NCBI GenBank assembly: GCA_964552475.1 | Contig: CAZKFZ010000006.1 | Coordinates: 27-64,026, forward strand | DNA: 64,000 nucleotides | Source of the DNA: an uncultured Candidatus Saccharibacteria bacterium | Lineage (GTDB): Bacteria; Patescibacteriota; Saccharimonadia; CAILAD01; BJGX01 | Direction: 5' to 3' | Shown here: piece by piece, positions 1 to 49,372 of the stretch | Layout of the letters: the number at the start of each line of letters is the position of its first letter | Position numbering within the stretch: the first letter of the stretch is position 1 | The notes under the pieces: generated by a model | Databases searched by the model: none | What the model was told of the DNA's origin: nothing | The model's input: only the letters and a program-made list of their open reading frames with translations | Translations under genes and position numbers: made by a program

Positions 1-150
1 AGCAACAATCGCTCTACCGAGGTCACATCACCCCACTACCGGGCGATTTCTGAGGTGTAAGCCCAGAATTGTACACAGTTTTACGTCTGCCGACGAACCT
101 TGCCCTACCAATTCTTTTTTCTCTTGATAGAACTTCTGTTGCCAGAGAGG

Positions 151-396
151 TTAGTCCCCCGAAGCGAGCGCAGACAACGCGCTCCCCCACGGGTCGAATC
201 CCGCGAGAGAGTTTGTTGATCCGACTTGCACGGTCGGCTCCCAGTAGTAATCGTCGGGGTCATCCCCGAAGGTACCCGTAGGGTACGCCCGACCACAGTC
301 TGGGCACCACCTTTTGAGCAGGTCACCCGTGCCAGTCGAGACCAGCACGGCGCCGTCCACTGCGCACTTCTCTTCTTCTTGCATGTTGGTTGTCAT
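151..396 (-). CDS. small hypothetical protein (contains CPDC motif), encoded in a GC-rich patch at the window edge
   Basis: 81-aa ORF in the track. Local composition is markedly more G+C-rich than the flanking AT-rich spacer. No recognisable family; overlapping alternative-frame ORFs exist. Confidence 0.2.
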   Translation of the reverse strand: MTTNMQEEEKCAVDGAVLVSTGTGDLLKRWCPDCGRAYPTGTFGDDPDDYYWEPTVQVGSTNSLAGFDPWGSALSALASGD

Positions 397-670: not shown

Positions 671-1127
671 GGTACGTCCCTACACTTGTGGCTATATTAG
701 CCTTTTTAGTCCTTATCTGGGACTGAGGCGCGTGGGAATTGATCTCCGTCTGTTAGGAGACGAGTCAACCCTCTATTTAGGGGTGACTGTATTCAGCTTG
801 GCCTCACGTGGCTGTAAGATTAGTCACCGGGTTTGCTGAATGGCGAATACTGCTAATACCGAAGGGCACTATTAATGCTTCTGCAGCAATGCATGGGGCT
901 TCAAATACTTCCCATCCTGAGTAATTCCTTTCAGGAACGCTGTTGGCCCTAACGGCCTTACCCCAGGACCTTCCTGGGGTTCCTCGCCGCCCCCATCTTA
1001 CAGGGGCACTGGAAGGGTTAGATCCCATCCATTTAGTACCCCCTTTTAGATAACGGTTGGCGAGAACAGCTATAAAGTAATATAACATAAAAAATACTAT
1101 TTTGTCAATAGTTGTCAACAAATTATA

Positions 1128-1886
1128 TTATTTTTGGTTTTTCCAGGCCATTTCAAAAAGTTGACGCAAAACACCTGCAATATCCTTACTTTCTATTACC
1201 ACCCCAACCGAGTTTTTTCCATTATATGTCGAAATGACAGCGGCATCTTCGTACAGATTAACATCGGCTTTAATTGGGTAACTAACTTTTTTAGTTTCTC
1301 TAAGCTGAGTACGATCGGATTTAACATCACCTATACTATATGAGTAAATTAGTTTACTTGAAAGTCTTTTTCTAAGCCTCCTCTGTGGATTCTCTTCTAG
1401 AATATTCGGAAATATCTTATGAACTTCGTCTATATTTGTAACTCCATACATCAAAGAGTTGGGTTTGGCTTTTCTACGATAATGAGAGTGTATAGTGTGG
1501 GCACCTTCGTCGCCCTTATAAAACCTTACTACCGGGGTTTCATCTCCGTCGGTAGCACGTGATACTTCTTTAAGACCGGGTAATAAATTCTTTAGCTCAG
1601 ATTGTTTTTGGGTTAGGGCTTGGGTTTGAGCTTCTAGGTATCTTTCGATAGCCTCTGGTGGCTCGGCCACAAAAACGGTTTTTTTACCTTGAGTGCTTTC
1701 ACTCACCAAGCCCATTTGAGCCAGTTCGTCTAGTATTACATAGGCCGTAGCTCGGTTAATTTCGGCTTGTTCAGCAATTTTTTGCACAGCGCTTGGGCCC
1801 AAAAATAAGGCTGCTACATAGACTTTGGCTTGTTTGTCGCTGAGCCCCACCGATTGGAGTTTGGCAGCTAGTTCGATGATTTGCAT
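1128..1886 (-). CDS. TrmB-family transcriptional regulator (N-terminal winged-HTH, C-terminal sugar-binding-like domain)
   Basis: N-terminus MQIIELAAKLQSVGLSDKQAKVYVAALFLGPSAVQKIAEQAEINRATAYVILDELAQMGLV resembles the TrmB HTH domain. 252 aa, typical length for the family. Confidence 0.55.
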   Translation of the reverse strand: MQIIELAAKLQSVGLSDKQAKVYVAALFLGPSAVQKIAEQAEINRATAYVILDELAQMGLVSESTQGKKTVFVAEPPEAIERYLEAQTQALTQKQSELKNLLPGLKEVSRATDGDETPVVRFYKGDEGAHTIHSHYRRKAKPNSLMYGVTNIDEVHKIFPNILEENPQRRLRKRLSSKLIYSYSIGDVKSDRTQLRETKKVSYPIKADVNLYEDAAVISTYNGKNSVGVVIESKDIAGVLRQLFEMAWKNQK

Positions 1887-8245: not shown

Positions 8246-9700
8246 TTATCGCTCCTGGGCAATAATTTGTTTTGCTATTTCAATTGCTTTGTCGCGGTCA
8301 TCAATAGTCAGTTCGCCGTTGGCGAACATTTCTTCTAGGTGATTTTTTACAATACCTATTAGCTTACCATCGGCCTTGGTAAAATTTGGTATAAGACCCA
8401 TTATTACCCTACCATCTATACCAAGGTCTCTCACTATACTAGGCTTTTGCACCTCTGCAGGCTCGGATTGGTGTTTTTGCCAAAGCTCAACAATAGCATC
8501 AAAGGCTGGTTTTTTGTGGCCAGTAGAGCCGTCTGGCAATGTTGAGTGGCTAGCCATTCCATCGGCCTCATGTAGCCTTACCAAGTCACCAAAAGCTGGG
8601 TGATTCATCATTTTCTTCTGATTAGCAGGGCGCATTTCTGGTAGTTGTTTTATATCTATGTGGTGGTCTATTAGCCACAATATATTCTCTTTTTGAGCAT
8701 TAGAGAATTTAAGTTTATTTAAGATTGGCCTAGCTAGCTCGGCGCTTGTTTGGGCATGACCATAAAATTTAAAATAATTTGGATCTTCGGTGGCTTCTTG
8801 AGTGTGTGGTTTGCCAATATCATGCAATAGCGTTGCCCACAAAAGCTCTTCACTAGCATCTGGCGGCAGAGCCTCCATTATAAGAAGTTGGTGTGTCCAG
8901 ACGTCACCTTCTGCATGAAATTTTGAGCCTTGCTCTACATCTTTTCCAGCGGTAAGCTCTGGTATATAAAAATCTAAAATACCTAGCTCGTCTAAATCTT
9001 CTAAGGCCTCTCGACGAGATAATGCCGTTTTGAAAATTGCTGTGAGCTCAGCTCTCATTCTTTCACCCGATATATCACCTATAGCACCCTCTTTTACAGC
9101 GTCTTTGAGCGCACGGTGCGTGCTTGGCTCGTAGCTAAACCCAAAGCGGTTTTTAAACCGAACTGCTCGCAAAATTCGTAATGGATCTTCTTGTATTCGT
9201 TCAGATGGGTCACCTACAAAACGAATAAGTTTATTATCTAAGTCACTAAGACTTTCACCTACGTAAAGTAGTTGATGAGTTACCGGATCAAGCGCCATAT
9301 TGTTGATCGTGAAATCACGCCTTTCTAGATCGTCCTCTAAAGAAACGTTGTCGGTATAAACCTGGGTAGCTTGACGACCCAAATGCGCATCTACATCTTT
9401 TCTATAGGTAGCTATTTCTAGCTCTACTCCATTCATTATTACCCTAGTAACCACATAGGCCTGCGAAGTGTCTGGAGTTTTAGATTTTTCAAATAGCTTC
9501 TCTATTTGTTCTGGTTTGGCATTGGTGGCAAGATCGTTATCTTTTGGCTCTAAACCAAGTAAAAGATCACGCACCGCACCGCCAACAATGACGGCTTCAA
9601 ATCCTTGGGATTGGAGTTTTTCATAAGCCAAAACTGCCTGATGCCACTCTGGGTGCATTTCGTCCCTAGTTTCGGCTGGATTGTATGGCATTGTCTCCAT
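8246..9700 (-). CDS. cca: CCA-adding tRNA nucleotidyltransferase / poly(A) polymerase-family enzyme with HD domain
   Basis: GGAVRDLLLG...DNDLAT nucleotidyltransferase head and an LLHDIGK HD motif. Confidence 0.8.
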   Translation of the reverse strand: METMPYNPAETRDEMHPEWHQAVLAYEKLQSQGFEAVIVGGAVRDLLLGLEPKDNDLATNAKPEQIEKLFEKSKTPDTSQAYVVTRVIMNGVELEIATYRKDVDAHLGRQATQVYTDNVSLEDDLERRDFTINNMALDPVTHQLLYVGESLSDLDNKLIRFVGDPSERIQEDPLRILRAVRFKNRFGFSYEPSTHRALKDAVKEGAIGDISGERMRAELTAIFKTALSRREALEDLDELGILDFYIPELTAGKDVEQGSKFHAEGDVWTHQLLIMEALPPDASEELLWATLLHDIGKPHTQEATEDPNYFKFYGHAQTSAELARPILNKLKFSNAQKENILWLIDHHIDIKQLPEMRPANQKKMMNHPAFGDLVRLHEADGMASHSTLPDGSTGHKKPAFDAIVELWQKHQSEPAEVQKPSIVRDLGIDGRVIMGLIPNFTKADGKLIGIVKNHLEEMFANGELTIDDRDKAIEIAKQIIAQER

Positions 9701-30736: not shown

Positions 30737-30813
30737 TGGTGGCTGCGGTAGGAATTGAACCTACGACCTCGGGCTTATGAGTCCCGCGCTCTAACCAACT
30801 GAGCTACGCAGCC
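30737..30813 (-). tRNA. tRNA-Met (anticodon CAU), elongator type
   Basis: Cloverleaf read on the minus strand: acceptor GGCTGCG/CGCAGCC, anticodon loop CTCATAA, CCA encoded. G1-C72 is paired and Y11:R24 is present. Acceptor and D-arm are near-identical to E. coli elongator tRNA-Met. Confidence 0.8.
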
Positions 30814-30953
30814 GCACTTACCTTTATTGGCTAATACATTTGGTTTTCTAAGCTGTTATTTTTGCACAAAAAACTAAAATATTCAACCTAAGACACTTGA
30901 TATACTAATCATAAGCGTTTAGTATAGTAAATATTGAATTAAAGGAAATATCA

Positions 30954-31115
30954 ATGCCAGCCAAGAAAACTACAAAAAAATCTACCCCTCTTGCCCGTAA
31001 ACAAAAATCTTTTGTCGACCCTGTAATAGTTGTAACTATTGCTTGTATTGTAATGGGTGGTCTCATATTTGTACTCTATGCAAGTGCTGCTACTGTCAAC
31101 ACACTTGCTCACTAA
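30954..31115 (+). CDS. unannotated 53-aa small membrane protein (K-rich N-terminus plus one TM helix)
   Basis: ATG preceded by AAAGGAAA 6 nt upstream. Encodes MPAKKTTKKSTPLARKQKSFVDPVIVVTIACIVMGGLIFVLYASAATVNTLAH. Below the ORF-track length cut-off. Confidence 0.35.
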   Translation: MPAKKTTKKSTPLARKQKSFVDPVIVVTIACIVMGGLIFVLYASAATVNTLAH

Positions 31116-31154
31116 AATTCTAGAATACTTTAGCACTCCTGCTATACTGTCTTA

Positions 31155-32048
31155 ATGACAAGCGTTAGAAGCAAAGCAATTTTATTGGCCCTACGTACCT
31201 CAAAGATATTTAGTGAGCCTATTACGCTAGAAAATATTAATCACAAACGCGAAGCCGTGGCCAAGCTAGCCAAGTTTGCTATTGTAGATAAAGATGTAAA
31301 AATTACGCCACACAAAACTGATAGATTTAATGGCGAGTGGATAGTTGTTCCAGAGTCAAGAGCCAACAAAGTGCTGTTATATTTTCATGGCGGTGGGTTT
31401 ATTTTTAATTTTACCCCACATCATCGTGATTATATTTCACGCCTTGCCAAAGCCGGGCAAATAAAAGCCTTTTCGCTAGACTATAGCTTGGCGCCAGAGC
31501 ACCCTTACCCTGTTGCACTCAATGAAGCGCTAGCCGCTTACAAGTGGCTACTCAAAACTTACAACGCCAGTGACATTGTTATTATGGGCGACTCAGCCGG
31601 TGGTGCCATGACTCTCTCGCTTCTACAAATGATTAAGCGCGACAAGTTACCTATGCCAGCCTGCGCCATCGCTATTGCCCCGCCCACAGACGCCACGTTG
31701 GAGAGCTACCAAAAATATGCCAAGCCCAATGATTATATTATTAAAGACGAAAACTTAGAATTTTTTATTAATTTGTATTTTGGTAGCACACCCCACAACG
31801 ACCCCATTGCATCACCATTTTTTGGTGACTACAAAGGTTTGCCGCCGCTACAGCTGCATATTGATAAAAGTGAGATACTCTACGGCGATGCGGTAGCTGT
31901 GGTAAAAAAAGCCCAGGCTGCCGGGATAGATGCCGAGCTCTATGAAGAAAAAGACCTTTGGCACGTATGGCATATTTTTGCGCGTTACGTACCAGAGGCA
32001 CAAAAAGCTGTAGACCACATTGGCAAATTTATACTAAAAAATACTTAA
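31155..32048 (+). CDS. alpha/beta-hydrolase esterase/lipase (hormone-sensitive-lipase family)
   Basis: HGGGF oxyanion motif and GDSAGG nucleophile elbow. Confidence 0.7.
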   Translation: MTSVRSKAILLALRTSKIFSEPITLENINHKREAVAKLAKFAIVDKDVKITPHKTDRFNGEWIVVPESRANKVLLYFHGGGFIFNFTPHHRDYISRLAKAGQIKAFSLDYSLAPEHPYPVALNEALAAYKWLLKTYNASDIVIMGDSAGGAMTLSLLQMIKRDKLPMPACAIAIAPPTDATLESYQKYAKPNDYIIKDENLEFFINLYFGSTPHNDPIASPFFGDYKGLPPLQLHIDKSEILYGDAVAVVKKAQAAGIDAELYEEKDLWHVWHIFARYVPEAQKAVDHIGKFILKNT

Positions 32049-32069
32049 GTAGTCTGTTATTATATTTTT

Positions 32070-32525
32070 ATGGAAAAACACGACTCACACCCTACTCCAA
32101 GTAAACACCGTTCCAAAACTGGCTGGCGCCCAAGCAAAAAATTGATATTTACCACTGTCATTTTGCTAGTTGTGGCCGGCACGGGCTTTTACTTTGGTAC
32201 CGTGTACCAAAAGAACCGCGATACTGCCGACGCTGAAGCTCAAAAAAAAGCCGCTCAAGTTGCTGCCACACCTATTATTGGCAAGGTGACTGACATTTCA
32301 GACAAAAAAGTAACTGTAAAAATCACCAAGACCAACGAGACCAAAGGCTACGACATTACTAGCAATACCCAAATACTATTAAATGGCAAAAAGGTGGGCG
32401 CCGGCGATATTAAAAAAGACCAGTCGGTAATTATACTCACCGAGCCCGGCAAGCCAAATGTTGCCCGACGTATCACTGCCTCTACTCCGCCAGCTACTAA
32501 CCCCTCTGTGAAAAAGACCGACTAG
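32070..32525 (+). CDS. membrane-anchored hypothetical protein
   Basis: N-terminal TM helix (LIFTTVILLVVAGTGFYFG), then a K-rich extracytoplasmic domain. Confidence 0.4.
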   Translation: MEKHDSHPTPSKHRSKTGWRPSKKLIFTTVILLVVAGTGFYFGTVYQKNRDTADAEAQKKAAQVAATPIIGKVTDISDKKVTVKITKTNETKGYDITSNTQILLNGKKVGAGDIKKDQSVIILTEPGKPNVARRITASTPPATNPSVKKTD

Positions 32526-32617
32526 TCTCTTTATACAAGCAATAGACAAGGCATAAGCATTAATAGTATGCTTATGTTAGCACCTGTACTACACACTACC
32601 TCAAGGGGGCTAGTTAA

Positions 32618-33202
32618 GTGCAAACCAAGTTCAAGATAATCCTACTGGTAACACTATTAGCCGGTCTGCTACTAACCGGCTGCAATGGTTTCGCTTACCA
32701 GCGGATATCCAATGGCCAGCCTGTTGGCTGGGGCTGTGCTACCGTGCACTATCGCATTGATGTGAGTGGCATGCCTAGCTTAGCCTGGGGTCAACACATA
32801 CACGATGCTTTCAGGGCCGCCTCGGCCGCCACGGGCATACCGGTGCACTACGATGGCCGTTTGCCGGCGGGTTACGCAGCTACCCACGGCTGGCAATCCA
32901 GCCCAGGCGACCCTGTGTGGGTTGGGTACAAACCGTTTGACGACCCACCGGTTGCTAGTAGTGGCTTCACCGAGCCGACCTTTTCTGGCAATCGCATTAC
33001 TGGTGGTAAGATTTGGTTCAACACCCTCTGGCGCTGGACTCGAACCAATCACAAACAGACACTTTGGCACGAGGTTGGCCATCTATTTGGTTTAGCCCAC
33101 CCTGTTGACAGCACCAATCAAGTTATGGGTGTTCATAGCCCACCCTATCAGTCTGGCGACTTGTTGGGATTTAGGGGTCTAAGACGGCCAAGCAACTGCT
33201 AA
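32618..33202 (+). CDS. metzincin-type zinc metalloprotease lipoprotein, GC-rich gene
   Basis: GTG start with AAGGGGG Shine-Dalgarno. LLLTGC lipobox. HEVGHLFGLAH matches the HExxHxxGxxH metzincin signature. Confidence 0.55.
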   Translation: MQTKFKIILLVTLLAGLLLTGCNGFAYQRISNGQPVGWGCATVHYRIDVSGMPSLAWGQHIHDAFRAASAATGIPVHYDGRLPAGYAATHGWQSSPGDPVWVGYKPFDDPPVASSGFTEPTFSGNRITGGKIWFNTLWRWTRTNHKQTLWHEVGHLFGLAHPVDSTNQVMGVHSPPYQSGDLLGFRGLRRPSNC

Positions 33203-33270
33203 CTATCACTTAGCCATTAGAAGTGGCAAACCTCGACGAGAGTCGGGGTTTTTGCTTGTTTGAATTAACT

Positions 33271-33777
33271 CTACGTAAGCTCATTTACCATCTGCTCAAG
33301 TACTACTTGTGTTGCAGCGTCATTGCGAATAACCTTTACATCAAGCTTCTGCGCCTCCTCTATCAAATACTCTTGTATCATTCGCACTGCTGTAAAGTTC
33401 TGTTCTGATTCATCTGTTTCTTTTCTTTTTTCGAAAAACTGTCTTTTGTGTATGGCCTCATCAAGACAAACCAACAAAAATACTTTTGCTTTATTGCGAT
33501 ACGGCGCTGGGTCTATAAACACTGCCTCAAGAATCACTTTATCATGCTCAACAAGCACTCTATCTACATCTTTGCGCATATAGTCTCTTACGTAGAGAAG
33601 TCCTTTCACAGTATTCTCTTTTGTAAGTGAACCATACTTTCGCCAAACAAACTTTGTGGCTGGGTACGGCCTAATATAATCACCTTCTATAAATGGAATC
33701 CCAGTTTTATATTGTAGTGCTTTGCTAATAGTAGTTTTCCCTGCGTCGGGAACACCGTATATCAAAACTTGGCTCAT
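33271..33777 (-). CDS. P-loop NTPase / small kinase-like protein
   Basis: Walker A GVPDAGKTT at the N-terminus. 168 aa. Its start overlaps the stop of the upstream surface-protein gene by 4 nt. Confidence 0.5.
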   Translation of the reverse strand: MSQVLIYGVPDAGKTTISKALQYKTGIPFIEGDYIRPYPATKFVWRKYGSLTKENTVKGLLYVRDYMRKDVDRVLVEHDKVILEAVFIDPAPYRNKAKVFLLVCLDEAIHKRQFFEKRKETDESEQNFTAVRMIQEYLIEEAQKLDVKVIRNDAATQVVLEQMVNELT

Positions 33778-36700
33778 ATCCTACTATTTCGTTTATTGGC
33801 ATAGAGACTTTGATAACCAGCTATGACTAGCCCAGCAATACCTGCGCTAACTAAAGCAATAGAAAAAATAACAAATATAGTTTTGTGTATATTTATACCG
33901 GTTTTTGCTAGCAACGATTCACCAACTGCTAACCCGATGGGGTCAGTAATTTTGCCGTCGGTAACGCCATCGGTGTCTAAGTTGCTGCCGTCAGTTATTT
34001 GATAGCTGGCTTTGGTGGCACTTTGGCCACCAACACTTACGCCGATGATGTTAGCACCATCTAAATTGGTGTAGGTATTACTATTAGGGTTGTACTTACG
34101 GGCGACAAAGCCTTGTGTAGCTACACCATAATAGTATTGAGTAACTGTAGTAGTTATACCGGGAGTGCCACAACTGAGGCTAAAGTTCATTAGCCCAGCT
34201 GGATAGTTGTAGTTAAGGTCTGGGGTGGTATTTACTGATTCTGCGGCTGTTGAAGCGGCGGTAATAGAGCACTCACTGCCTACCTCGAGAGTGGCATACT
34301 GCCCGGTGACAGGGTCAACAAAACTCGCTACATTGGCTTGCTCAGAGTCCGGGGTGTTGTCGCCGTTGGCATCGCCATTGTTGGGGGCGGCGGATTCGAT
34401 TTCGCTAGGTACTCCATCGTTGTCGTCTACTGGCGCGTTTGGGTCGTAAGTGTGTGTTACCAGACTATTGTTACTGAGAGTACTGAATGGATCTGTTCCG
34501 GTACCAAAAGCCTGACCAAATGTTTGAGCTTCTGGGTCTAGCTCATAGAACACCATAGCGCGGTTAAGAGTTGGTTGAGTTTCATCTATAGACTCTATGT
34601 TCACAACTATCTTAAAACTTACTGTCTGCCCGTTTGCGATGCTATCAAATCCAAAAACACAGGCTATAAAATGGCCAACGGTGCCCGGAAATGGCCAATC
34701 TTCGTGCGGGTCCTCGCAGCTCACATTGTCACCTATTACAGCGCTATACTCAACACCGTGAGGCAGAACATCAAAAATATACGTGCCACCAACTGCTGTG
34801 TCGGGCCCATGGTTGGTAAGACCAATAGTATAGGTAGCTTGTTGACCATTTTTGATTGTACCTGGCGCATCAAGAGTCTTAGTGATCTCAATGTCTACAA
34901 CTGGTGTAGGTACAAATGTATCATCGTCGGTGCCGCAATTATTGCTTTCGTCGATATCAATAATAGTTTGGCCCCCTAACCGGATAGGAGGGTCTATACA
35001 TACTTGACTTGTATCTAAGTTTCCAAAATTTTGCACATCACCACTCAATATCAAGGTAAGTGTTTCGCCAGACTTCAATAGACCAGACCAGGTATTACCA
35101 TCAAAGCTACCAGGCGATGTCGCGGTGGTGTTGTCGGAGTCTACTGAATACATATATGGATAAAGTACATTATTTGCACCCTGGAATGTAAAATGGTCAA
35201 CGTCACCCGGCCCGTTATTAGTGACGGTAAAGGTGTATTGATTCGGTTCTCCAAATACAGCGCTCGTAGTGCCATCGTCGCTTGTTACGGCCAAGTCTGC
35301 TTGCGGTTCATATTTACCAAATTCACTAGTTGGGCCAAAACCCGTAGGACTATCTGGATCAATCAGTGTGGCTGTCGCTGCAAGGTGTGTGTGACCTGTA
35401 CCGCTAACAGTAGTGGTAAAGTTTTGGCTACCGGTGCCGGTACTGGTGGCTTCGTCGTAGCCAAGGAAGGTTTCCCCCTCACCATAACCTGTCGGGTCAG
35501 CCTCTGTATTACTAAAGAATTCTATACGATAGTCGCCAGCGGGCACATCTAAGCTAAACCCTATATCGGTATTACCAGCGTTTTCGGTGGCCTGAGTAAT
35601 AATTGGGAAATTGAGCAAATCATTTGGGCCTGAATCGCCATCACCGGAATCATTTGCGGTTGGATAATTGTCGCCACCAGAACCGCCGCCTAGTTTTATA
35701 CCTGTGTAATTATTACTAAAAATAGAGTTGCCTAGAAATGGACTGTGTCCACTACCATAAAAAATCATACCAATACCATTAGCACCATTGAAGGCAATAA
35801 TATTACCTTCGCCCTGGTTTGTACCGCCAATCAGTGGTGCGGCTAAGGACGTCAAATGCACACCGTACTCTCCATTCCCAAGATCTATGGTATTTGTAAG
35901 ATCTGTACCTATGTGATTACCCTGTATTCTTGCACCAACTCCATCACCCATCCAAATCCCACTCGCTGTGTTACCACCTATTACATTATCTTTTATTAAT
36001 ACTCCGCTACAATCACCGCTACAACCTATTGATAGCCCGTGACCAGCATTTGGTATCTTAGCCGTGCCTGTCGAGTTAGTTCCAATTAGATTATTCTCGA
36101 TAGTTGCGACATTAAATGAAAGTGCCACCCCATAATTACTATTGCCAGAAATAACATTGCCATCATTTATGCCTGGCCCCCCAATCATTAGATTAATAAA
36201 CCCACCATAGGCCCCAATACCGTTATTTGTATTTGGTAGAGCTGCCGTACCGGCATGGTTTGTGCCAATCTTGTTACCCTTAATTATTGTATTTGTGTGC
36301 GTACCATACCAAAAGCTAATACCCCTACCTATTACTCCAGATATCAAATTGTTAGCAATAGTGGTGCCTGTGCTAGGGGCTACATTTATACCGCCGTAAC
36401 TATCTATTCCTAATGATGTTGTACCAGCAATATCTGTGCCAACAATGTTATTTTTAAACATTGTGTTATTACCGTTAATCCAAAGGCCATATTTACCAAA
36501 TAGATTCATGTCGGTAGAATTATTTCCACCAACCGTTGAGTCATTTCCAGATACGCTTAGACCGATGCGTGTTACCGTGCTAACAGCTGTTGTACCATCT
36601 GCGCTCGTTCCAAAAAAATTACATCTTACTATATTGGTGTCGCTTTGGGTCTCCAAATATGCATTGCCAGTGCCAAACACCAGCCCATTGATCTCTGAGC

Positions 36701-37070
36701 CAGCAGCATTTGCGCTAGTAGTAATCAATGGGCTATTTTCTATAACAACTTTTAGGGTTGAGCTAGTGCCGTTACAAACAGACCCAGATTGAGACATCCC
36801 ATTTATTTTGAGTTGATCGGTAATAGTAATCCCGCCTGTTGTGAGTGCAATAGTATGCGGGCCGGCGCCGGAAATATTAAAGTCTATTTGGTCTGCTCCA
36901 GCATTATTGTTGGCATCGGTAATAGCTTGCCTTAAACTACCGGCACCAGCATCGTCGGTAGTAGTAACGGTATAAGTTGCAGCCTTGGCGGCGTGCGGCA
37001 GTGTTAAAAATCCAAAAGCTAGAGCAATGACCGGTAGTACTAAGAGGAGTTTGATCTTTGTTCCTGTCAT
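33774..37070 (-). CDS. 1098-aa secreted right-handed beta-helix surface protein with C-terminal LAxTG-type sortase signal
   Basis: Signal peptide. Dozens of G/N/T-rich parallel-beta-helix-like repeats (NNLISG, IKGNKIGTN...). C-terminal LAKTG plus hydrophobic segment plus KRNSRI tail. Confidence 0.6.
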   Translation of the reverse strand: MTGTKIKLLLVLPVIALAFGFLTLPHAAKAATYTVTTTDDAGAGSLRQAITDANNNAGADQIDFNISGAGPHTIALTTGGITITDQLKINGMSQSGSVCNGTSSTLKVVIENSPLITTSANAAGSEINGLVFGTGNAYLETQSDTNIVRCNFFGTSADGTTAVSTVTRIGLSVSGNDSTVGGNNSTDMNLFGKYGLWINGNNTMFKNNIVGTDIAGTTSLGIDSYGGINVAPSTGTTIANNLISGVIGRGISFWYGTHTNTIIKGNKIGTNHAGTAALPNTNNGIGAYGGFINLMIGGPGINDGNVISGNSNYGVALSFNVATIENNLIGTNSTGTAKIPNAGHGLSIGCSGDCSGVLIKDNVIGGNTASGIWMGDGVGARIQGNHIGTDLTNTIDLGNGEYGVHLTSLAAPLIGGTNQGEGNIIAFNGANGIGMIFYGSGHSPFLGNSIFSNNYTGIKLGGGSGGDNYPTANDSGDGDSGPNDLLNFPIITQATENAGNTDIGFSLDVPAGDYRIEFFSNTEADPTGYGEGETFLGYDEATSTGTGSQNFTTTVSGTGHTHLAATATLIDPDSPTGFGPTSEFGKYEPQADLAVTSDDGTTSAVFGEPNQYTFTVTNNGPGDVDHFTFQGANNVLYPYMYSVDSDNTTATSPGSFDGNTWSGLLKSGETLTLILSGDVQNFGNLDTSQVCIDPPIRLGGQTIIDIDESNNCGTDDDTFVPTPVVDIEITKTLDAPGTIKNGQQATYTIGLTNHGPDTAVGGTYIFDVLPHGVEYSAVIGDNVSCEDPHEDWPFPGTVGHFIACVFGFDSIANGQTVSFKIVVNIESIDETQPTLNRAMVFYELDPEAQTFGQAFGTGTDPFSTLSNNSLVTHTYDPNAPVDDNDGVPSEIESAAPNNGDANGDNTPDSEQANVASFVDPVTGQYATLEVGSECSITAASTAAESVNTTPDLNYNYPAGLMNFSLSCGTPGITTTVTQYYYGVATQGFVARKYNPNSNTYTNLDGANIIGVSVGGQSATKASYQITDGSNLDTDGVTDGKITDPIGLAVGESLLAKTGINIHKTIFVIFSIALVSAGIAGLVIAGYQSLYANKRNSRI

Positions 37071-39025
37071 ACTCTACCCCGTTGTTTCTTTTTGGAATAA
37101 ACTCTGTGTCCTGTAAGGCCAGCGACACCTAATACTCCTGCGGCAATGAGAGTTAGTGCGATGAATAATCGTTGGTTGGTGTGCTGTGGCTGCCCGGTGT
37201 TGGCTAGTGAGCTGGAGTTGCCAGAGGGGCTAGGAGTAGGTGTTGGGGTTGGTGGTACTGGTACTGGTGCGGCAATGGCTTGTACTGGAGCTGAGAATTC
37301 TGAGCTGTGGCCATAACCATCACTAGATACATCGGTCATGGTAGTTACGGCAGTAACATAGTAGTCGGCAGGCACAGAACCGGGGAGATTAAGAGTAGCC
37401 GATTGGCCAGTGACAGAGCCTGGCACAATATCTGAGCCAAGATAAATAGCCCCTTCACGATCACTTGTTGAATTGGCATAAAAATCTACACTGTAGCCAG
37501 TAGCCCCTACCTCGGCTGGATTAATGTCGAGGTCGTAATTGACAGTTACTTGGCCACTACCCTTTGTGGCAGAGTTGATGACAGGGAAGTTCATAAACAT
37601 ATTGGGGCCAACATCGGGGTCGCCAGCATCATTGGGATAAGGCTCAGGGGTGTCGCAGACAAAATTACTGTCTGTGTCGTTACATAAGCGTATGCCACTC
37701 TCAGTGTTTTGTTCTATGTCGTTACCGATGATGGTATTGTTTAATGGTGCATCACCAAAGCCAGCAATATTTATTGCAAACACACCGCTGCCAGTACTAC
37801 CGGCAATCTTATTGCCTTCACCCACGCCAGTACCACCAATAAGGATATCGTGACTATTATTGGCCATTGCGACACCAGAGGTATTACTTAAACCTGGGGT
37901 AACATCACCATTCTTATCAGTGCCAAAGTAGTTACCCTGAATAGTATTACTAGAGGATTCGAACATAAGTATGCCACCCCATATAGCAGTATTGTTTGTT
38001 ATGACATTACGGGCTGCTACTGATGTGCCTCCAATAATATTGTTGCTACCACCCGATAAGCAAATACCGCCTATGCCATCATTTGAAAGCGGCGCAAGCC
38101 CAGTAGCATCTAACCCAATATAGTTACCTTGAATAGTATTATTGGACGCCCCTTCCCCTTGTATACCGCAATTACCATTACCCGATATAACATTCATTGC
38201 ACCCGTTGCTGTACCCCCGACAGTAACATTCCCTGAGCTCATAAATATACCATCATCGACATTACCTATATCGGCAATACCATTAGCTGCTACACCGATA
38301 TAATTACCTTGTATTACAGTACCCATACTAGTGGACATACCAAACCCCGAATTTCCCGAAACCAAGTTCCGTTCGGCAGGGTTTGTACTACCCACATGTA
38401 CCCCTGTACCCCCGGTTGAATTTGATATACCTCTTTTATTACCCAAATCTACTAAACCGGTGGTATCTGTCCCTAAGTAATTACCAAAGACATTGATGTT
38501 GTTGTTGACACCATTACTAATACGTATGCCATTATTATCAAACCGGTTTATAACTAAACCTCTAATAGTCGAGTTGCTAGTATTTATATTAAGACCATCA
38601 CACCCATTACCGGCACTTCCCCCATCAATCTCAATCGTTAGTGTGCCATTAAAAGGGTTAGGTGATATGGCAGTATTGACAGCTGAGCCGGGTTGAGAGT
38701 AACCGTCTATAGTCACAGACTGAGTAATGTCATCAAAACAAGAAGCTGGTTGAATGGTGTGTACCCCAGTGCCAGATATACCAAAGTCTATGGTATCGCC
38801 ACCAGTGCCAGCATTCACTTCTTGAATGGCCGCCCTAAGAGTACAAGTATCTAGGGCTGTATGGCAGGCCAGGTCGCCAGGATTGTCGTCGGCTTCATCG
38901 CCAATAGAATCGACAGTGTAAGTAGTAGCGGCTTTGGCAGAGTGTGGTTGTAATACAAAAGCAATGGCTAATGCAATAGCACACATTAGTAGTGTTAGCG
39001 AAATTGTTTTATTATGTATCCTCAT
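37067..39025 (-). CDS. 652-aa secreted beta-helix surface protein with Pro/Thr linker and C-terminal LANTG sorting signal
   Basis: Signal peptide, beta-helix-type repeats, and a PVPVPPTPTPTPSPS linker. LANTG plus TM plus KKKQRGRV tail. Overlaps the downstream gene by 4 nt. Confidence 0.6.
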   Translation of the reverse strand: MRIHNKTISLTLLMCAIALAIAFVLQPHSAKAATTYTVDSIGDEADDNPGDLACHTALDTCTLRAAIQEVNAGTGGDTIDFGISGTGVHTIQPASCFDDITQSVTIDGYSQPGSAVNTAISPNPFNGTLTIEIDGGSAGNGCDGLNINTSNSTIRGLVINRFDNNGIRISNGVNNNINVFGNYLGTDTTGLVDLGNKRGISNSTGGTGVHVGSTNPAERNLVSGNSGFGMSTSMGTVIQGNYIGVAANGIADIGNVDDGIFMSSGNVTVGGTATGAMNVISGNGNCGIQGEGASNNTIQGNYIGLDATGLAPLSNDGIGGICLSGGSNNIIGGTSVAARNVITNNTAIWGGILMFESSSNTIQGNYFGTDKNGDVTPGLSNTSGVAMANNSHDILIGGTGVGEGNKIAGSTGSGVFAINIAGFGDAPLNNTIIGNDIEQNTESGIRLCNDTDSNFVCDTPEPYPNDAGDPDVGPNMFMNFPVINSATKGSGQVTVNYDLDINPAEVGATGYSVDFYANSTSDREGAIYLGSDIVPGSVTGQSATLNLPGSVPADYYVTAVTTMTDVSSDGYGHSSEFSAPVQAIAAPVPVPPTPTPTPSPSGNSSSLANTGQPQHTNQRLFIALTLIAAGVLGVAGLTGHRVYSKKKQRGRV

Positions 39026-39095
39026 AAACTATTATTTATGATATATATTTTAGCATAAGAGTAATAGGTAGCGAAAGGTTAGGGCAGATTTATAT

Positions 39096-40754
39096 TTAAT
39101 GCCTGCCTTTGGGAGTTTTGGTGGGGTTACCAAAGAACTCCAAGCCTTTGGCGTTTTTTAGTGTCTCTTTTAGTTCTTTTTGATGAGTGAGCATATAAAG
39201 CAAACTGCCTATGCGACGAGGCAATGATGCAGTATTGTTGGTAATAACTTTTTTGAGCTTGGGGTTGCCACTTAGCCCAGACATCTTTAACGCATTGTCA
39301 GTAGTATCGGCATACTGCACAGCCTCGGCAAAACCTCGGCCAATATCTTTGCCTTCTCTATTTTTGAGAATTACTGCGCCCTCATTATACTGTGCTCCAT
39401 TGGCAAAAAAGTTGGTTTGCCCTCCAGGTACTATTTGAGTCATGCTAAATCGCCGGATGTCGGCTGGCATAGTATGGTCAAAACTAAAGTGCCACTCGTT
39501 GGGGTGCCATACATTGGTGATTGGATACAGTTCAGGATTCGAACTTAGCTTGGCCTGTATCCACTTGGTAATCTTAAGATTTCCCCAAGTGTTATGCATT
39601 TCACCGTTCTCATCCATATATTTGCCAGCTACCGGTATAGTCATAGTAGGCGGTGAGTCTGGGCCAGTCTGAAAATAATAGCTGAGGTATTTTTTGCTAT
39701 GTGCAGCAAACATAGTAATTTGTCTGTCGCCATCGAATTGCGCCATGTACCAATCCCAACCAGCTGGGCCAGGAGCCGAAATATTGTTGGCAGCCCTCAA
39801 CACTTCTGATTGCGGATTACCGCTCAAAAATCCCCATTGATGATCAAACCACATTAAGCCCTTTTTGAGCTTTACTGTCTCGTCGCCATACTGCAAAGTG
39901 CTGCCGGCACTTACTTGTATATTGGGAATAGAATAATAAAGTGAGCCGGTGCCAGCCACTGATGGCATAGCGCCATCATCGCCTTGCAATAAATAATCTT
40001 TGCCGCCAGTGAGCTTGAGATCTAGCGCTATAATGAATGGTTTGTCGGTAGAACGGTCTACTCCACGAGCTTGTATAGTGAGTGGTGTAAGTTCTTTGCC
40101 GCCAGTACCAACTATGCTGTTTTTGCCCAACACATATTTGAATGGTTTGGCTTGGAATTCTATGAGTCCTGAAGTACCAGCAATAACTGTTGGGTCGGCC
40201 TGGTGATGCATATCACCGGCTTTGGATATACCTAGCTGGATTTCTACTACTTGGTTTTCGATATCGGTTAGGCCAAATTTCTTGGCTAGCTCTGGTGCCA
40301 AAATAGTTTGGCGAAAGAACATCAGCTCTACCCCATACTCTTGGCCGTCTTCAGCCCAAACGCTACCCACAAAGAAGTGCCAACCAACTTGGCTAGTAAA
40401 TTTGGGCTGGTGATCGCGCGGAAACTGCAAGTTGGCAGACTCTGGCATTTGGTCAAAAAACTGCGTGGTGTTGTTACCCAAAAATCTGGTAGAGATAATA
40501 TAGGCTTGGTGCGGTGTAAGACCATCAATAGCTTTTGATAGCTCGGTATATCTTTCTTGGTAATTTGGGTTGTGGCTTTGTTGTTTATCTAATAATAATT
40601 TAAGATAGGCACGCATGCGCTCGCCATAAGCCTCTGGTGAGTGTTTTTCTGATTGGATTTTTTCTTGAATATCTTTTGGAATTTTATTTATATCAAAATC
40701 TTCTAGCCAAAGAGAGTCGGCTATATATTGAGAGTTTGGGATATTGTTATGCAT
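39096..40754 (-). CDS. AttH/CrtC-like (hydroxyneurosporene-synthase / lipocalin-like) domain protein with N-terminal extension
   Basis: WFDHQWG motif resembles the conserved W-[FY]-DH-[EQ]-W-G element of the CrtC/AttH family. 552 aa; no obvious signal peptide. Confidence 0.35.
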   Translation of the reverse strand: MHNNIPNSQYIADSLWLEDFDINKIPKDIQEKIQSEKHSPEAYGERMRAYLKLLLDKQQSHNPNYQERYTELSKAIDGLTPHQAYIISTRFLGNNTTQFFDQMPESANLQFPRDHQPKFTSQVGWHFFVGSVWAEDGQEYGVELMFFRQTILAPELAKKFGLTDIENQVVEIQLGISKAGDMHHQADPTVIAGTSGLIEFQAKPFKYVLGKNSIVGTGGKELTPLTIQARGVDRSTDKPFIIALDLKLTGGKDYLLQGDDGAMPSVAGTGSLYYSIPNIQVSAGSTLQYGDETVKLKKGLMWFDHQWGFLSGNPQSEVLRAANNISAPGPAGWDWYMAQFDGDRQITMFAAHSKKYLSYYFQTGPDSPPTMTIPVAGKYMDENGEMHNTWGNLKITKWIQAKLSSNPELYPITNVWHPNEWHFSFDHTMPADIRRFSMTQIVPGGQTNFFANGAQYNEGAVILKNREGKDIGRGFAEAVQYADTTDNALKMSGLSGNPKLKKVITNNTASLPRRIGSLLYMLTHQKELKETLKNAKGLEFFGNPTKTPKGRH

Positions 40755-40839
40755 AAGAGTTATTATAGCAAACTTATGTTTTTAACAATCTCTTTTGTAT
40801 CGAAAAGAAAAAGAACTCAACATAATATTGAGTTCTTTT

Positions 40840-40859
40840 CTTGGTAGCGGGGGCAGGAT
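40840..40859 (-). repeat. partial copy 1 of the tRNA-fMet 3' end (T-stem 3' half, acceptor 3' strand, ACCA, AG) with adjacent terminator-like hairpin
   Basis: Exact 20-nt match (cttggtagcgggggcaggat) to the 3' end of the tRNA gene at 41188-41262. Preceded by hairpin gaactcaa...ttgagttc and a T-run. Confidence 0.7.
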
Positions 40860-41009
40860 GGTTCGGCTTACGCCGTACCTCCGTAAAGTGCTTGGTCAAA
40901 GCGCAAATCAATTTGCTTTTGACGCTGCGCGCTTTACTCTACCGAACCTTTGGGTTTCGAACCGCACACATTATGCAAGATAAAAGCACAACCGTAGTTG
41001 TGCTTTTAT

Positions 41010-41029
41010 CTTGGTAGCGGGGGCAGGAT
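41010..41029 (-). repeat. partial copy 2 of the tRNA-fMet 3' end with adjacent hairpin
   Basis: Exact 20-nt match. Preceded by hairpin gcacaac-cgta-gttgtgc and a T-run. It lies 170 bp from copy 1 and 176 bp from the copy inside the tRNA gene. Confidence 0.7.
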
Positions 41030-41187
41030 AGCGGCTACGCCTTCTCCGCTCATTCGTGCTCGAAACAAGTTTCTGTGCGCGAAATCGCTACGCCGAACCA
41101 GCGACATGCCAAATAAATTTGGCGTCGCAGAACCGTATCTAGCTCAATACCAAGAAAAAGACTCAACACAAGGTTGAGTTCTTTTCT

Positions 41188-41262
41188 TGGTAGCGGGGGC
41201 AGGATTCGAACCTGCGACCTCCAGGTTATGAGCCTGACGAGCTGCCACTGCTCTACCCCGCG
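41188..41262 (-). tRNA. initiator tRNA-fMet (anticodon CAU)
   Basis: CGCGGGGTAGAGCAG...GCTCATAACC...GGTTCGAATCCTGCCCCCGCTACCA is collinear with E. coli tRNA-fMet. Positions 1:72 are mismatched (C:U). A11:U24 is present in the D-stem. CCA is encoded. Confidence 0.8.
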
Positions 41263-41339
41263 TTGTCGTCAGACAACGATACATTGACCGTTGAAATATT
41301 GGTGATACTTGGAAATTATAGCGCAAAAACTATAATTAT

Positions 41340-41856
41340 TCAACCCTTGCAGCTCCCCGACCCTTAAAAGTATCAGAAAAGAAAAGCAGTTGGCTGCTTC
41401 TGTTTTGAGGACTTGCCTGACGCTTCTTAAACTTGTTTAAGAAAGGAGTCCCGCAGAAACAGAAAAGGCAACTGGTTTTATGCTTCTATATACTTTTACG
41501 GTGTCGATAGCTTTGGTTCTTTGGCTTATCAAAGAACCGCTGTCTGCGTAGGACATAAAGTCTGTGCGAACAGCACAATAAGATAAAATTTAAATTAAAA
41601 AAGGTTTCGCTCTTTTAGGGAGCAATCTTCTTTTGTATGGTTAAACCCTTACATGGAAAACTAGATCCCGGATCTGGAGCGCTCCGCTTCCAGTCCGGGA
41701 TGACGGTGAGGGGTGTTGCTGCGGGACTCCTTCCGACTTCGTTCGGAGCGTTAGACAGTCCTCACATCTAGCAATGAGATGTATTCTATTCACGTTAGGG
41801 TAGCTCGATAGCCAGGGGGAATTAGCTTTATGATATTCGAGAGTTGAGGAGGAAAG
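41340..41856. ncRNA. structured non-coding element 1, bounded by nested imperfect inverted repeats (candidate novel ncRNA or MITE-like element)
   Basis: Outer inverted-repeat arm gaggacttgcctgacgct (41407-41424) pairs with agcgttagacagtcctc (41746-41762). Inner arm ggagtcccgcag (41445-41456) pairs with ctgcgggactcc (41718-41729). Internal hairpin ggttctttg...caaagaacc (41514-41538). No ORF. Confidence 0.45.
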
Positions 41857-41862
41857 ATTGTA

Positions 41863-49296: not shown

Positions 49297-49372
49297 TGGT
49301 GGGCCTGGTAGGAATTGAACCTACGACCAATCGGTTATGAGCCGACTGCTCTAACCACTGAGCTACAGGCCC
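49297..49372 (-). tRNA. tRNA with anticodon CAU, most similar to tRNA-Ile2 (lysidine-modified)
   Basis: GGGCCTGTAGCTCAGTGGTTAGAGCAG...CTCATAA...TTGGTCGTAGGTTCAATTCC. The D-arm and variable/T-arm closely resemble E. coli ileX. G1-C72 is paired, so it is not an initiator. Confidence 0.55.

Follow-up and report, generated by a model that had tools for sequence, protein, structure and literature searches.

The window analyzed here, a 64,000-nucleotide stretch of DNA from an uncultured bacterium that the proteins of neighboring genes assign to Candidatus Saccharibacteria, carries an intact initiator tRNA gene followed by two partial copies of its own 3′ end, each of which closes a short folded unit. 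These two units, A and B, are the subject of this report. The tRNA-fMet(CAU) gene is 75 nt long, lies on the minus strand at 41188..41262 and was called by both ARAGORN and Rfam. It has a C1xU72 mismatch when aligned to the Rfam model and an A11:U24 pair, features by which we take it to be an initiator. The last 18 nt of the gene (41205..41188), ATCCTGCCCCCGCTACCA, occur at exactly three sites in the window, all on the minus strand: in the gene itself (41188-41205, tail copy 1), at the 3′ end of unit A (41012-41029, tail copy 2) and, again as an exact match, at the 3′ end of unit B (40842-40859, tail copy 3). A search that allowed up to three mismatches returned no further site in the window and 0 in 100 shuffles. 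From start to start the copies are 176 and 170 nt apart, and the exact repeat grows to 21 nt once the trailing AGA is included. Identity with the tRNA begins in the T-loop at nt 59-60, with the junction at nt 58/59, and extends to the tRNA 3′ end.

All three tail copies lead into a hairpin with A/T runs on its flanks. Terminator hairpin T1 follows the tRNA and overlaps its ACCA end (41148..41192, minus strand; inverted-repeat and terminator scans), T2 has a perfect 17-bp stem (40976..41013, minus; inverted-repeat scan) and T1′ is 90% identical to T1 (40809..40839, minus; repeat and terminator scans). An earlier reading made from the letters alone, hereafter the sequence-only reading, had described one intact tRNA-fMet with two partial, hairpin-bearing copies of its 3′ end, a spacing of 170-176 bp and a repeat boundary in the T-loop. 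These points are all borne out, with the exact repeat, given there as 20 nt, now measured at 21. An assembly artefact, which that reading had named as a possible refutation, is ruled out by the same architecture in three independently assembled relatives (L011, L012 and L016). Short-read contigs from strains of the same species all stop inside the 18-mer, as a true repeat predicts, and are silent on the array.

The inter-tail spacers of 152-158 bp hold two elements, each about 135 nt long with its tail and about 115 nt without it. Both follow one body plan: a 5′ hairpin, a two-helix core around CGCRCAG/GAGCAC, a conserved GAUGAGCGGAGAAG-type stretch and a 3′ hairpin. Unit A occupies 41145..41012 on the minus strand, its body (41030..41145) being delimited by alignment and structure counts, and a six-sequence alignment places helix P1 at 41135..41094, the core helices P3/P4, which enclose CGCACAG...GAGCAC, at 41084..41052, and P5 at 41047..41026. 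Unit B occupies 40974..40842 on the same strand (body 40860..40974), with P1 at 40960..40942, core helices at 40937..40883 and P5 at 40882..40856; its fold comprises a 5′ hairpin, a helix GUAAAG/CUUUAC around CGCGCAG...AAGCAC, a long inner hairpin and a 3′ hairpin. The covariance model R1, built from A, scores unit A of the window at 156.6 bits and detects both B copies over their full length (E = 0.002 and 0.01, the latter for the window), and A and B are therefore paralogs.

The fold is conserved through compensatory changes, on the tRNA-sense strand. For unit A, RNAalifold gave 36 pairs in six helices across the six sequences, with standard pairs in 95.7% of cells and changes on both sides in 9 of the 36 pairs; these values were equaled in none of 500 shuffles, and slid controls were 31-47% paired. 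The helix that encloses the core reads UUCG/CGAA in the window, GAAAG/CUUUC in L013 and AAGGCAA/UUGCCUU in L147, while the inner hairpin reads GAAAC/GUUUC, GAAAU/AUUUC and GAAGC/GCUUC in the same three genomes. G·U combinations fill 23 cells of the alignment and A·C combinations 3, which identifies the tRNA-sense strand as the folded one. Compensatory changes on one strand, the pattern of a structured RNA gene, are found in unit A and also in a module of the metagenome units described below.

The unit bodies also evolve far more slowly than the genes around them. Compared with four relatives (L011, L012, L016 and L159), body DNA is 92-97% identical for A and 90-96% for B, while the DNA of the DivIC, AttH, Metallophos and abhydrolase genes is 66-82% identical; the tRNA itself is 97-100% identical. 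This pattern bears on the explanation put forward in the sequence-only reading, in which the array consists of plain stacked attL/attR scars of integrase-borne islands and the DNA between them is a non-functional remnant. The array has the form by which island arrays are recognized, namely displaced 3′ fragments in direct orientation beside one intact tRNA. Integration into tRNA genes is known to yield a regenerated target and a displaced 3′ fragment, tandem arrays of such fragments are documented (PMC4383910; 10.1101/2020.12.28.424599), and the T-loop/T-stem region in which the identity block starts is the commonest sublocation (PMC4383910). A variable island adjoins the array as well. However, the spacers lack any integrase remnant and remain 90-97% identical where genes have fallen to 66-82%, four helices are kept by compensatory changes, and the spacers reappear with unchanged boundaries in many genomes and joined to other tRNA tails. 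The scar account is largely refuted, and we regard it as very unlikely.

A decayed tandem triplication of the tRNA-fMet gene, the other origin that the sequence-only reading had allowed for, would explain why a T-arm 5′ remnant, GGTTCG, stands upstream of each body and the full 3′ part downstream, and why tRNA positions 39-58 are kept in some metagenome units (L125, L145). Yet no relative whose contig reaches the locus has a second intact tRNA-fMet there (about 20 loci), neutral decay would not give 18/18 tail identity beside a wholly replaced 5′ part, and decay does not produce a conserved fold. We consider this origin highly improbable. The likeness of one spacer to the tRNA 5′ half, which had been read as faint similarity, comes down to GGTAGAG and GGTTCG and is not significant; no match between the units and the Rfam tRNA model emerges even at E <= 10. 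Similarly, the proposed closing helix GGTTCGG/CCGAACC exists as sequence, but comparison favors two local hairpins in its place, since L016 breaks the helix and keeps the hairpin.

Among Saccharibacteria the units vary in number and order. The window has tRNA-A-B, L011 has tRNA-B-A, L012 has tRNA-A and L016 has tRNA-B. The A-type units of L013 and L147 have tails that end early, after ATCCTGC(CCC), the B-type unit of L159 has a tail that ends after ATCCTA, and L162 carries a shortened A whose tail has one mismatch; retention of the body thus does not depend on the acceptor part of the tail (L013, L147 and L159). Where a tail is present it tracks the resident tRNA variant, as with CCTAC in L016 and L159. 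All units are co-oriented with their own tRNA, and a terminator follows most of them.

Comparison of these loci demonstrates that the array has been reshuffled at its tail and terminator repeats. Presence and absence fall exactly at the tail: L160 and L166 read tRNA, T2 and flank, whereas L012 reads tRNA, then T3, A and a tail, then T2 and a similar flank. The switch between the A-B order of the window and the B-A order of L011 corresponds to movement of a module composed of T1 and A, and the unit of L159 is an A/B hybrid in which an A-type 5′ flank is fused to B at the common TTCG. The upstream terminator moves with the body, T2 accompanying B in three genomes and T1 accompanying A in two, and T2 stands directly 3′ of the tRNA in L011, L016, L160 and L166.

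Units that are cleanly present or absent and are permuted at the tail boundaries, together with a terminator that travels with the body downstream of it, are also what would be expected of non-autonomous mini integrative cassettes. In this alternative each cassette would consist of a terminator, a body and a tail, a recombinase acting in trans would insert it at the tRNA 3′ end and excise it again, and the body would be a structured site at the DNA level, like the attC of integrons. Furthermore, some metagenome loci hold kilobase-sized cassettes of open reading frames (ORFs), without an integrase inside, between the same tails; the body occurs joined to the tails of three different tRNAs; GNA loops are frequent; and pair statistics do not tell RNA apart from a folded single strand of DNA. 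In viral contig L023 some 450 bp separate the 18-mer from a tyrosine integrase gene, and in other such contigs it falls within a serine recombinase gene. However, no integrase, transposase or serine recombinase (Phage_integrase or Resolvase domains) was found among the 36 ORFs of the window, also by phmmer, and no recombinase lies beside the units of three metagenome loci (L090, L128 and L109). Long conserved unpaired motifs persist across very distant taxa, unlike in attC-type sites, and a 170-bp duplex circle is implausible as an intermediate. Slippage, deletion/duplication or homologous exchange between direct repeats of 21-55 bp would yield the same polymorphisms without a site-specific enzyme, and A-type units occupy the same site in deeply diverged Saccharibacteria lineages, in a manner resembling vertical inheritance. 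On balance we find mobile cassettes unlikely, if worth keeping in view.

In four IMG/VR contigs (L020, L022, L024 and L025) the tRNA-fMet 18-mer lies antisense within the 3′ end of the gene for a large serine recombinase, where it may be an attP that overlaps the recombinase gene. The recombinase-associated copies in L023, L020 and L024, the T-loop boundary and the polymorphism at the repeats uphold the att-like character that the sequence-only reading gave to the repeat. Its stacked scars are not supported: the spacers are two conserved, base-paired, paralogous elements, the same body occurs with other tRNA tails and the window holds no integrase.

The family extends beyond Saccharibacteria and beyond tRNA-fMet. 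A metagenome scan for the tail without the preceding A of the T-loop returned at least 120 loci, a sample from which the taxonomic and tRNA range of the family can be given only as a lower bound. Some of these are coding coincidences, such as the DPAPATTF motif of the ATP synthase beta subunit, and some are ordinary att fragments. In many non-Saccharibacteria loci, an intact tRNA-fMet precedes analogous units rich in hairpins, one to three in number and spaced at 147-240 nt, each with a tail and usually with its own terminator (L029, L037, L046, L052, L064, L078, L086, L090, L094, L096, L099, L109, L111, L125, L139, L142 and L145 among them). Model R1 scores 36 bits in L090, 20 bits in L128 and 32.7 bits at L030 966-1107.

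The last of these units directly follows a tRNA-Thr gene and ends in the tRNA-Thr 3′ end. Another, related unit on the same contig, with the core CGCGCC...GAGCAC, follows tRNA-Gly(CCC) and ends in the 3′ end of that tRNA. The body is thus conserved while the tail is whatever the adjacent tRNA ends in, be it a variant of fMet, Thr or Gly. The Thr unit lies between two tRNA genes and lacks a terminator, which places it inside a tRNA operon. The 2247-bp contig L030 carries four units in all (876-1370, plus strand; 1-330, minus strand): one after tRNA-Thr(CGU), one after tRNA-Gly(CCC) and two fMet-tailed ones on the other strand.

Because the tail carries the discriminator base and CCA, the units might be mimics of tRNA, that is, small RNAs whose tail forms an acceptor/T-arm minihelix and which are processed, CCA-repaired and aminoacylated, or which serve as decoys for tRNA-fMet-binding factors. 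By inspection, AGCGGAG in unit A can pair with CCCCGCU and GAAGG with CCUGC, and a perfect GGGGCAGG/CCUGCCCC hairpin is found in L057. Some units also have an anti-tail, the reverse complement of the T-loop/T-stem 3′ segment, upstream of the tail, and it varies with the type of tRNA (GGGCAGGAGCCGAACC in L128, GGGGAU in the Thr unit and GGGAAUCGAACC in the Gly unit of L030); units A and B of the window have no strong anti-tail. Against these likenesses, AGCGGAG is unchanged in the Thr-tailed unit and does not co-vary with the acceptor strand, L013, L147 and L159 keep the conserved body without the acceptor part of the tail, and ARAGORN finds neither tRNA nor tmRNA (transfer-messenger RNA) at the units. 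Pairing in an acceptor-stem minihelix is ruled out, as AGCGGAG does not follow the type of tail, and its constancy together with the loss of the acceptor part in three lineages makes a minihelix or aminoacylation role unlikely. We give tRNA mimicry only a very slim chance. Elsewhere in the window, the ORF at 8246-9700 encodes a PolyA_pol head with RNA-binding and HD domains and is probably a CCA-adding enzyme, a point that could matter if RNA made from the units has a CCA end.

The three-unit array of L109 (3650-4480, minus strand) displays a further kind of variation. The T-loop of its first unit is uninterrupted (GGGTTCAAATCC), and its second and third units share the body of the first with a 53-nt, two-hairpin module inserted in the T-loop after GGGTTCAT. 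This module is also found in at least two other body contexts, for example in L078 and L138. Its hairpin, CUGA-stem-GAAG, has G-C to C-G covariation at four positions among 19 sequences.

One could also envision a new class of RNA element that targets tRNA genes and inserts at T-loop position 58/59, either a mobile, intron-like RNA or a scaffold whose tail guides an RNA-guided recombinase or nuclease encoded elsewhere. Such an element would explain why one body stands at the same T-loop position on fMet, Thr and Gly tails, why the 53-nt module is present or absent there in otherwise identical units of L109 and why the adjacent DNA is an insertion hot spot. No gene for a nuclease of the TnpB/IscB type was found close to the units of the window or to those of L090, L128 and L109. 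We judge a T-loop-targeting element to be distinctly unlikely.

Known RNA families account for none of the units searched. Rfam 15 at gathering thresholds, run on the window and 20 metagenome loci, returned only tRNAs, and so did searches of the locus and of L030, L096, L078 and L125 in E-value mode. By eye, the core motifs misfit the hammerhead, the K-turn, domain IV of the signal recognition particle RNA, CR-IV of RNase P and domain V of group II introns, and Rfam lends none of these candidates support. BLAST of the unit region against phage and plasmid collections gave no match, nor did a scan for three body motifs over viral contigs, and nhmmer with a profile of the tail-less core found no additional copies in 1 Mb of compared DNA. 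In the literature we found no described RNA family defined by a tRNA tail, by T-loop insertion or by occurrence in Saccharibacteria; the matches were general papers on tRNA islands.

Taken together, our favored explanation, to which we give an even chance of being right, is that the two units represent an uncatalogued family of structured, non-coding tRNA-trailer elements that are set within att-like repeats of the tRNA 3′ end, are expressed in the direction of the tRNA and take their tail from the resident tRNA. A unit consists of the folded body (about 115 nt), a duplicate of the final 18 nt of the tRNA gene that directly precedes it and a terminator of the tRNA type. It would be transcribed as non-coding RNA, either by read-through or from weak promoters that overlap the preceding terminator, and the body would be its functional part. 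The tail would be present because the unit arose at the T-loop of a copied tRNA 3′ end, by insertion or recombination, and its identity would be upheld by ongoing recombination or gene conversion with the resident tRNA. The segment concerned is the one that tRNA-targeting integrases use, and the tail would have to remain functional, since with every exchange it becomes the 3′ end of the sole initiator tRNA gene.

Several observations weigh against tRNA-trailer RNA elements. The units are missing in five relatives (L148, L156, L019, L160 and L166) and are therefore dispensable. The base for covariation is small, with six sequences for A and four for B, and the B sequences are almost invariant and give no covariation alone. 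A single-stranded DNA fold of the same strand predicts identical pair statistics, and many of the loops are of the GNA/GNNA kind that is stable in DNA as well. In the distant metagenome units, part of the R1 score is supplied by the shared tail. Finally, a promoter scan of the array found no strong promoter ahead of A or B, only one ahead of the tRNA.

That promoter is sigma-70-like (TTGAAT-17-TATAAT; 41315..41343, minus strand), and its GCGCTATAAT box is kept in relatives. Between promoter and tRNA, six relatives (L001, L005, L011, L012, L016 and L166) have a conserved leader of about 150 nt that includes AATGAAACCGAATGAAC and GGAAGAGGAGAGTGACTTG. In the window (41263-41314, minus strand) only about 40 nt of this leader are present, so that about 110 nt have been deleted, and even strains that are 94-100% identical have the full leader. 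On the far side of the promoter, some 520 nt of non-coding DNA (41344-41862) extend to DivIC and contain a 19-nt inverted repeat (41443-41461/41714-41732) and several terminator-like hairpins. Conservation of this stretch among relatives is patchy, it is just 50 nt long in L148, and Rfam has no match to it.

In relatives L148, L156, L147, L013 and L019, the order of genes is Metallophos, DivIC, tRNA-fMet, a spacer of 0.3-0.6 kb whose other strand holds a small ORF of 53 aa, a 77-nt tRNA(CAU), TilS and FtsH. Window positions 30844-31103 match the part of this spacer that bears the ORF of about 53 aa, which is K-rich, has one hydrophobic segment and lies on the strand opposite the tRNAs. The 77-nt tRNA(CAU) directly upstream of tilS, a pairing kept in relatives, is probably a tRNA-Ile2. 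The window has two tRNA(CAU) genes besides the initiator (30737-30813 and 49297-49372), and neither has a downstream tail copy or unit.

The last tail copy and the conserved block of small ORF, tRNA(CAU) and tilS are separated in the window by about 9.7 kb of additional DNA (about 31104..40808), which we treat as context and not as part of a unit. This variable island is absent from several relatives. An AttH-like gene (39096-40754) and an abhydrolase gene (31155-32048) are common to the window, L012, L016, L159, L160 and L166, and the genes between them (NosD-like, DUF11/beta-helix and AAA_18) are specific to, or divergent among, genomes. The sequence-only reading had called the tRNA an integration hot spot. 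The position of the island beside the last tail copy agrees with this, whereas no distal tail repeat bounds the island and the window holds no integrase. The rearrangements at the repeats, the 18-mers beside recombinase genes and the integrase-free ORF cassettes also support a hot spot and resemble what is known of tRNA-targeted islands and their arrays (PMC4383910; 10.1101/2020.12.28.424599). The sequence-only reading had also asked whether the nearby sortase gene arrived by integration, which is not supported: that gene lies on the opposite side of the tRNA, where synteny is kept.

Repeated tRNA 3′ ends are routinely taken for integration scars and passed over, and here the intervening DNA is a conserved folded element. 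The constraint upon it is about that of a structural RNA, and it occurs in Saccharibacteria as well as in other uncultured lineages, accompanies more than one tRNA species and is not in Rfam. An RNA gene of this kind would represent a new family linked to the tRNA operons of minimal-genome organisms. A mobile module would be a very small element aimed at the most conserved sequence of tRNA genes, at a hot spot of gene gain. Either way, the work provides a concrete model and sequence set for database-wide searches.

Several known systems share parts of this architecture. The omegaRNAs of TnpB and IS200-IS605 elements likewise have a scaffold of about 115-130 nt followed by 16-20 nt identical to the adjacent target, and in the units the guide-like part varies with the tRNA. 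Unlike omegaRNAs, the units have no tnpB or tnpA nearby and no Rfam or hidden Markov model match, their matching segment would target the host's own essential tRNA gene, and the body is kept with a truncated tail in several lineages.

A CCA end and sequence derived from the T-arm and acceptor, in or near tRNA transcription units, are shared with tmRNA, with the Y RNA YrlA (PMC4201824) and with small RNAs made from 3′ trailers. The units differ from all of these in that the acceptor and T stems are represented by their 3′ strand alone, without a conserved partner strand, and in being negative with ARAGORN and Rfam. Integron cassettes and non-autonomous integrative elements are also small recombinase-free modules behind a fixed site, with a repeated recombination sequence at the end and conserved structure. 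Unlike integron attC sites, the units come without IntI or another recombinase and without a GTTRRRY core, their boundary repeat is 18-21 bp of tRNA, and their bodies hold long conserved unpaired motifs.

A further parallel is found in islands of the Islander type and in the tycheposon arrays of Prochlorococcus, where an intact tRNA is followed by several direct repeats in a row that reproduce its 3′ part from the T-loop/T-stem region onward, with variable DNA adjacent (PMC4383910; 10.1101/2020.12.28.424599). Unlike those islands, which are measured in kilobases, the segments between the repeats described here are about 155 bp long, integrase-free, conserved in their base pairing, and recur across genomes and tRNA types.

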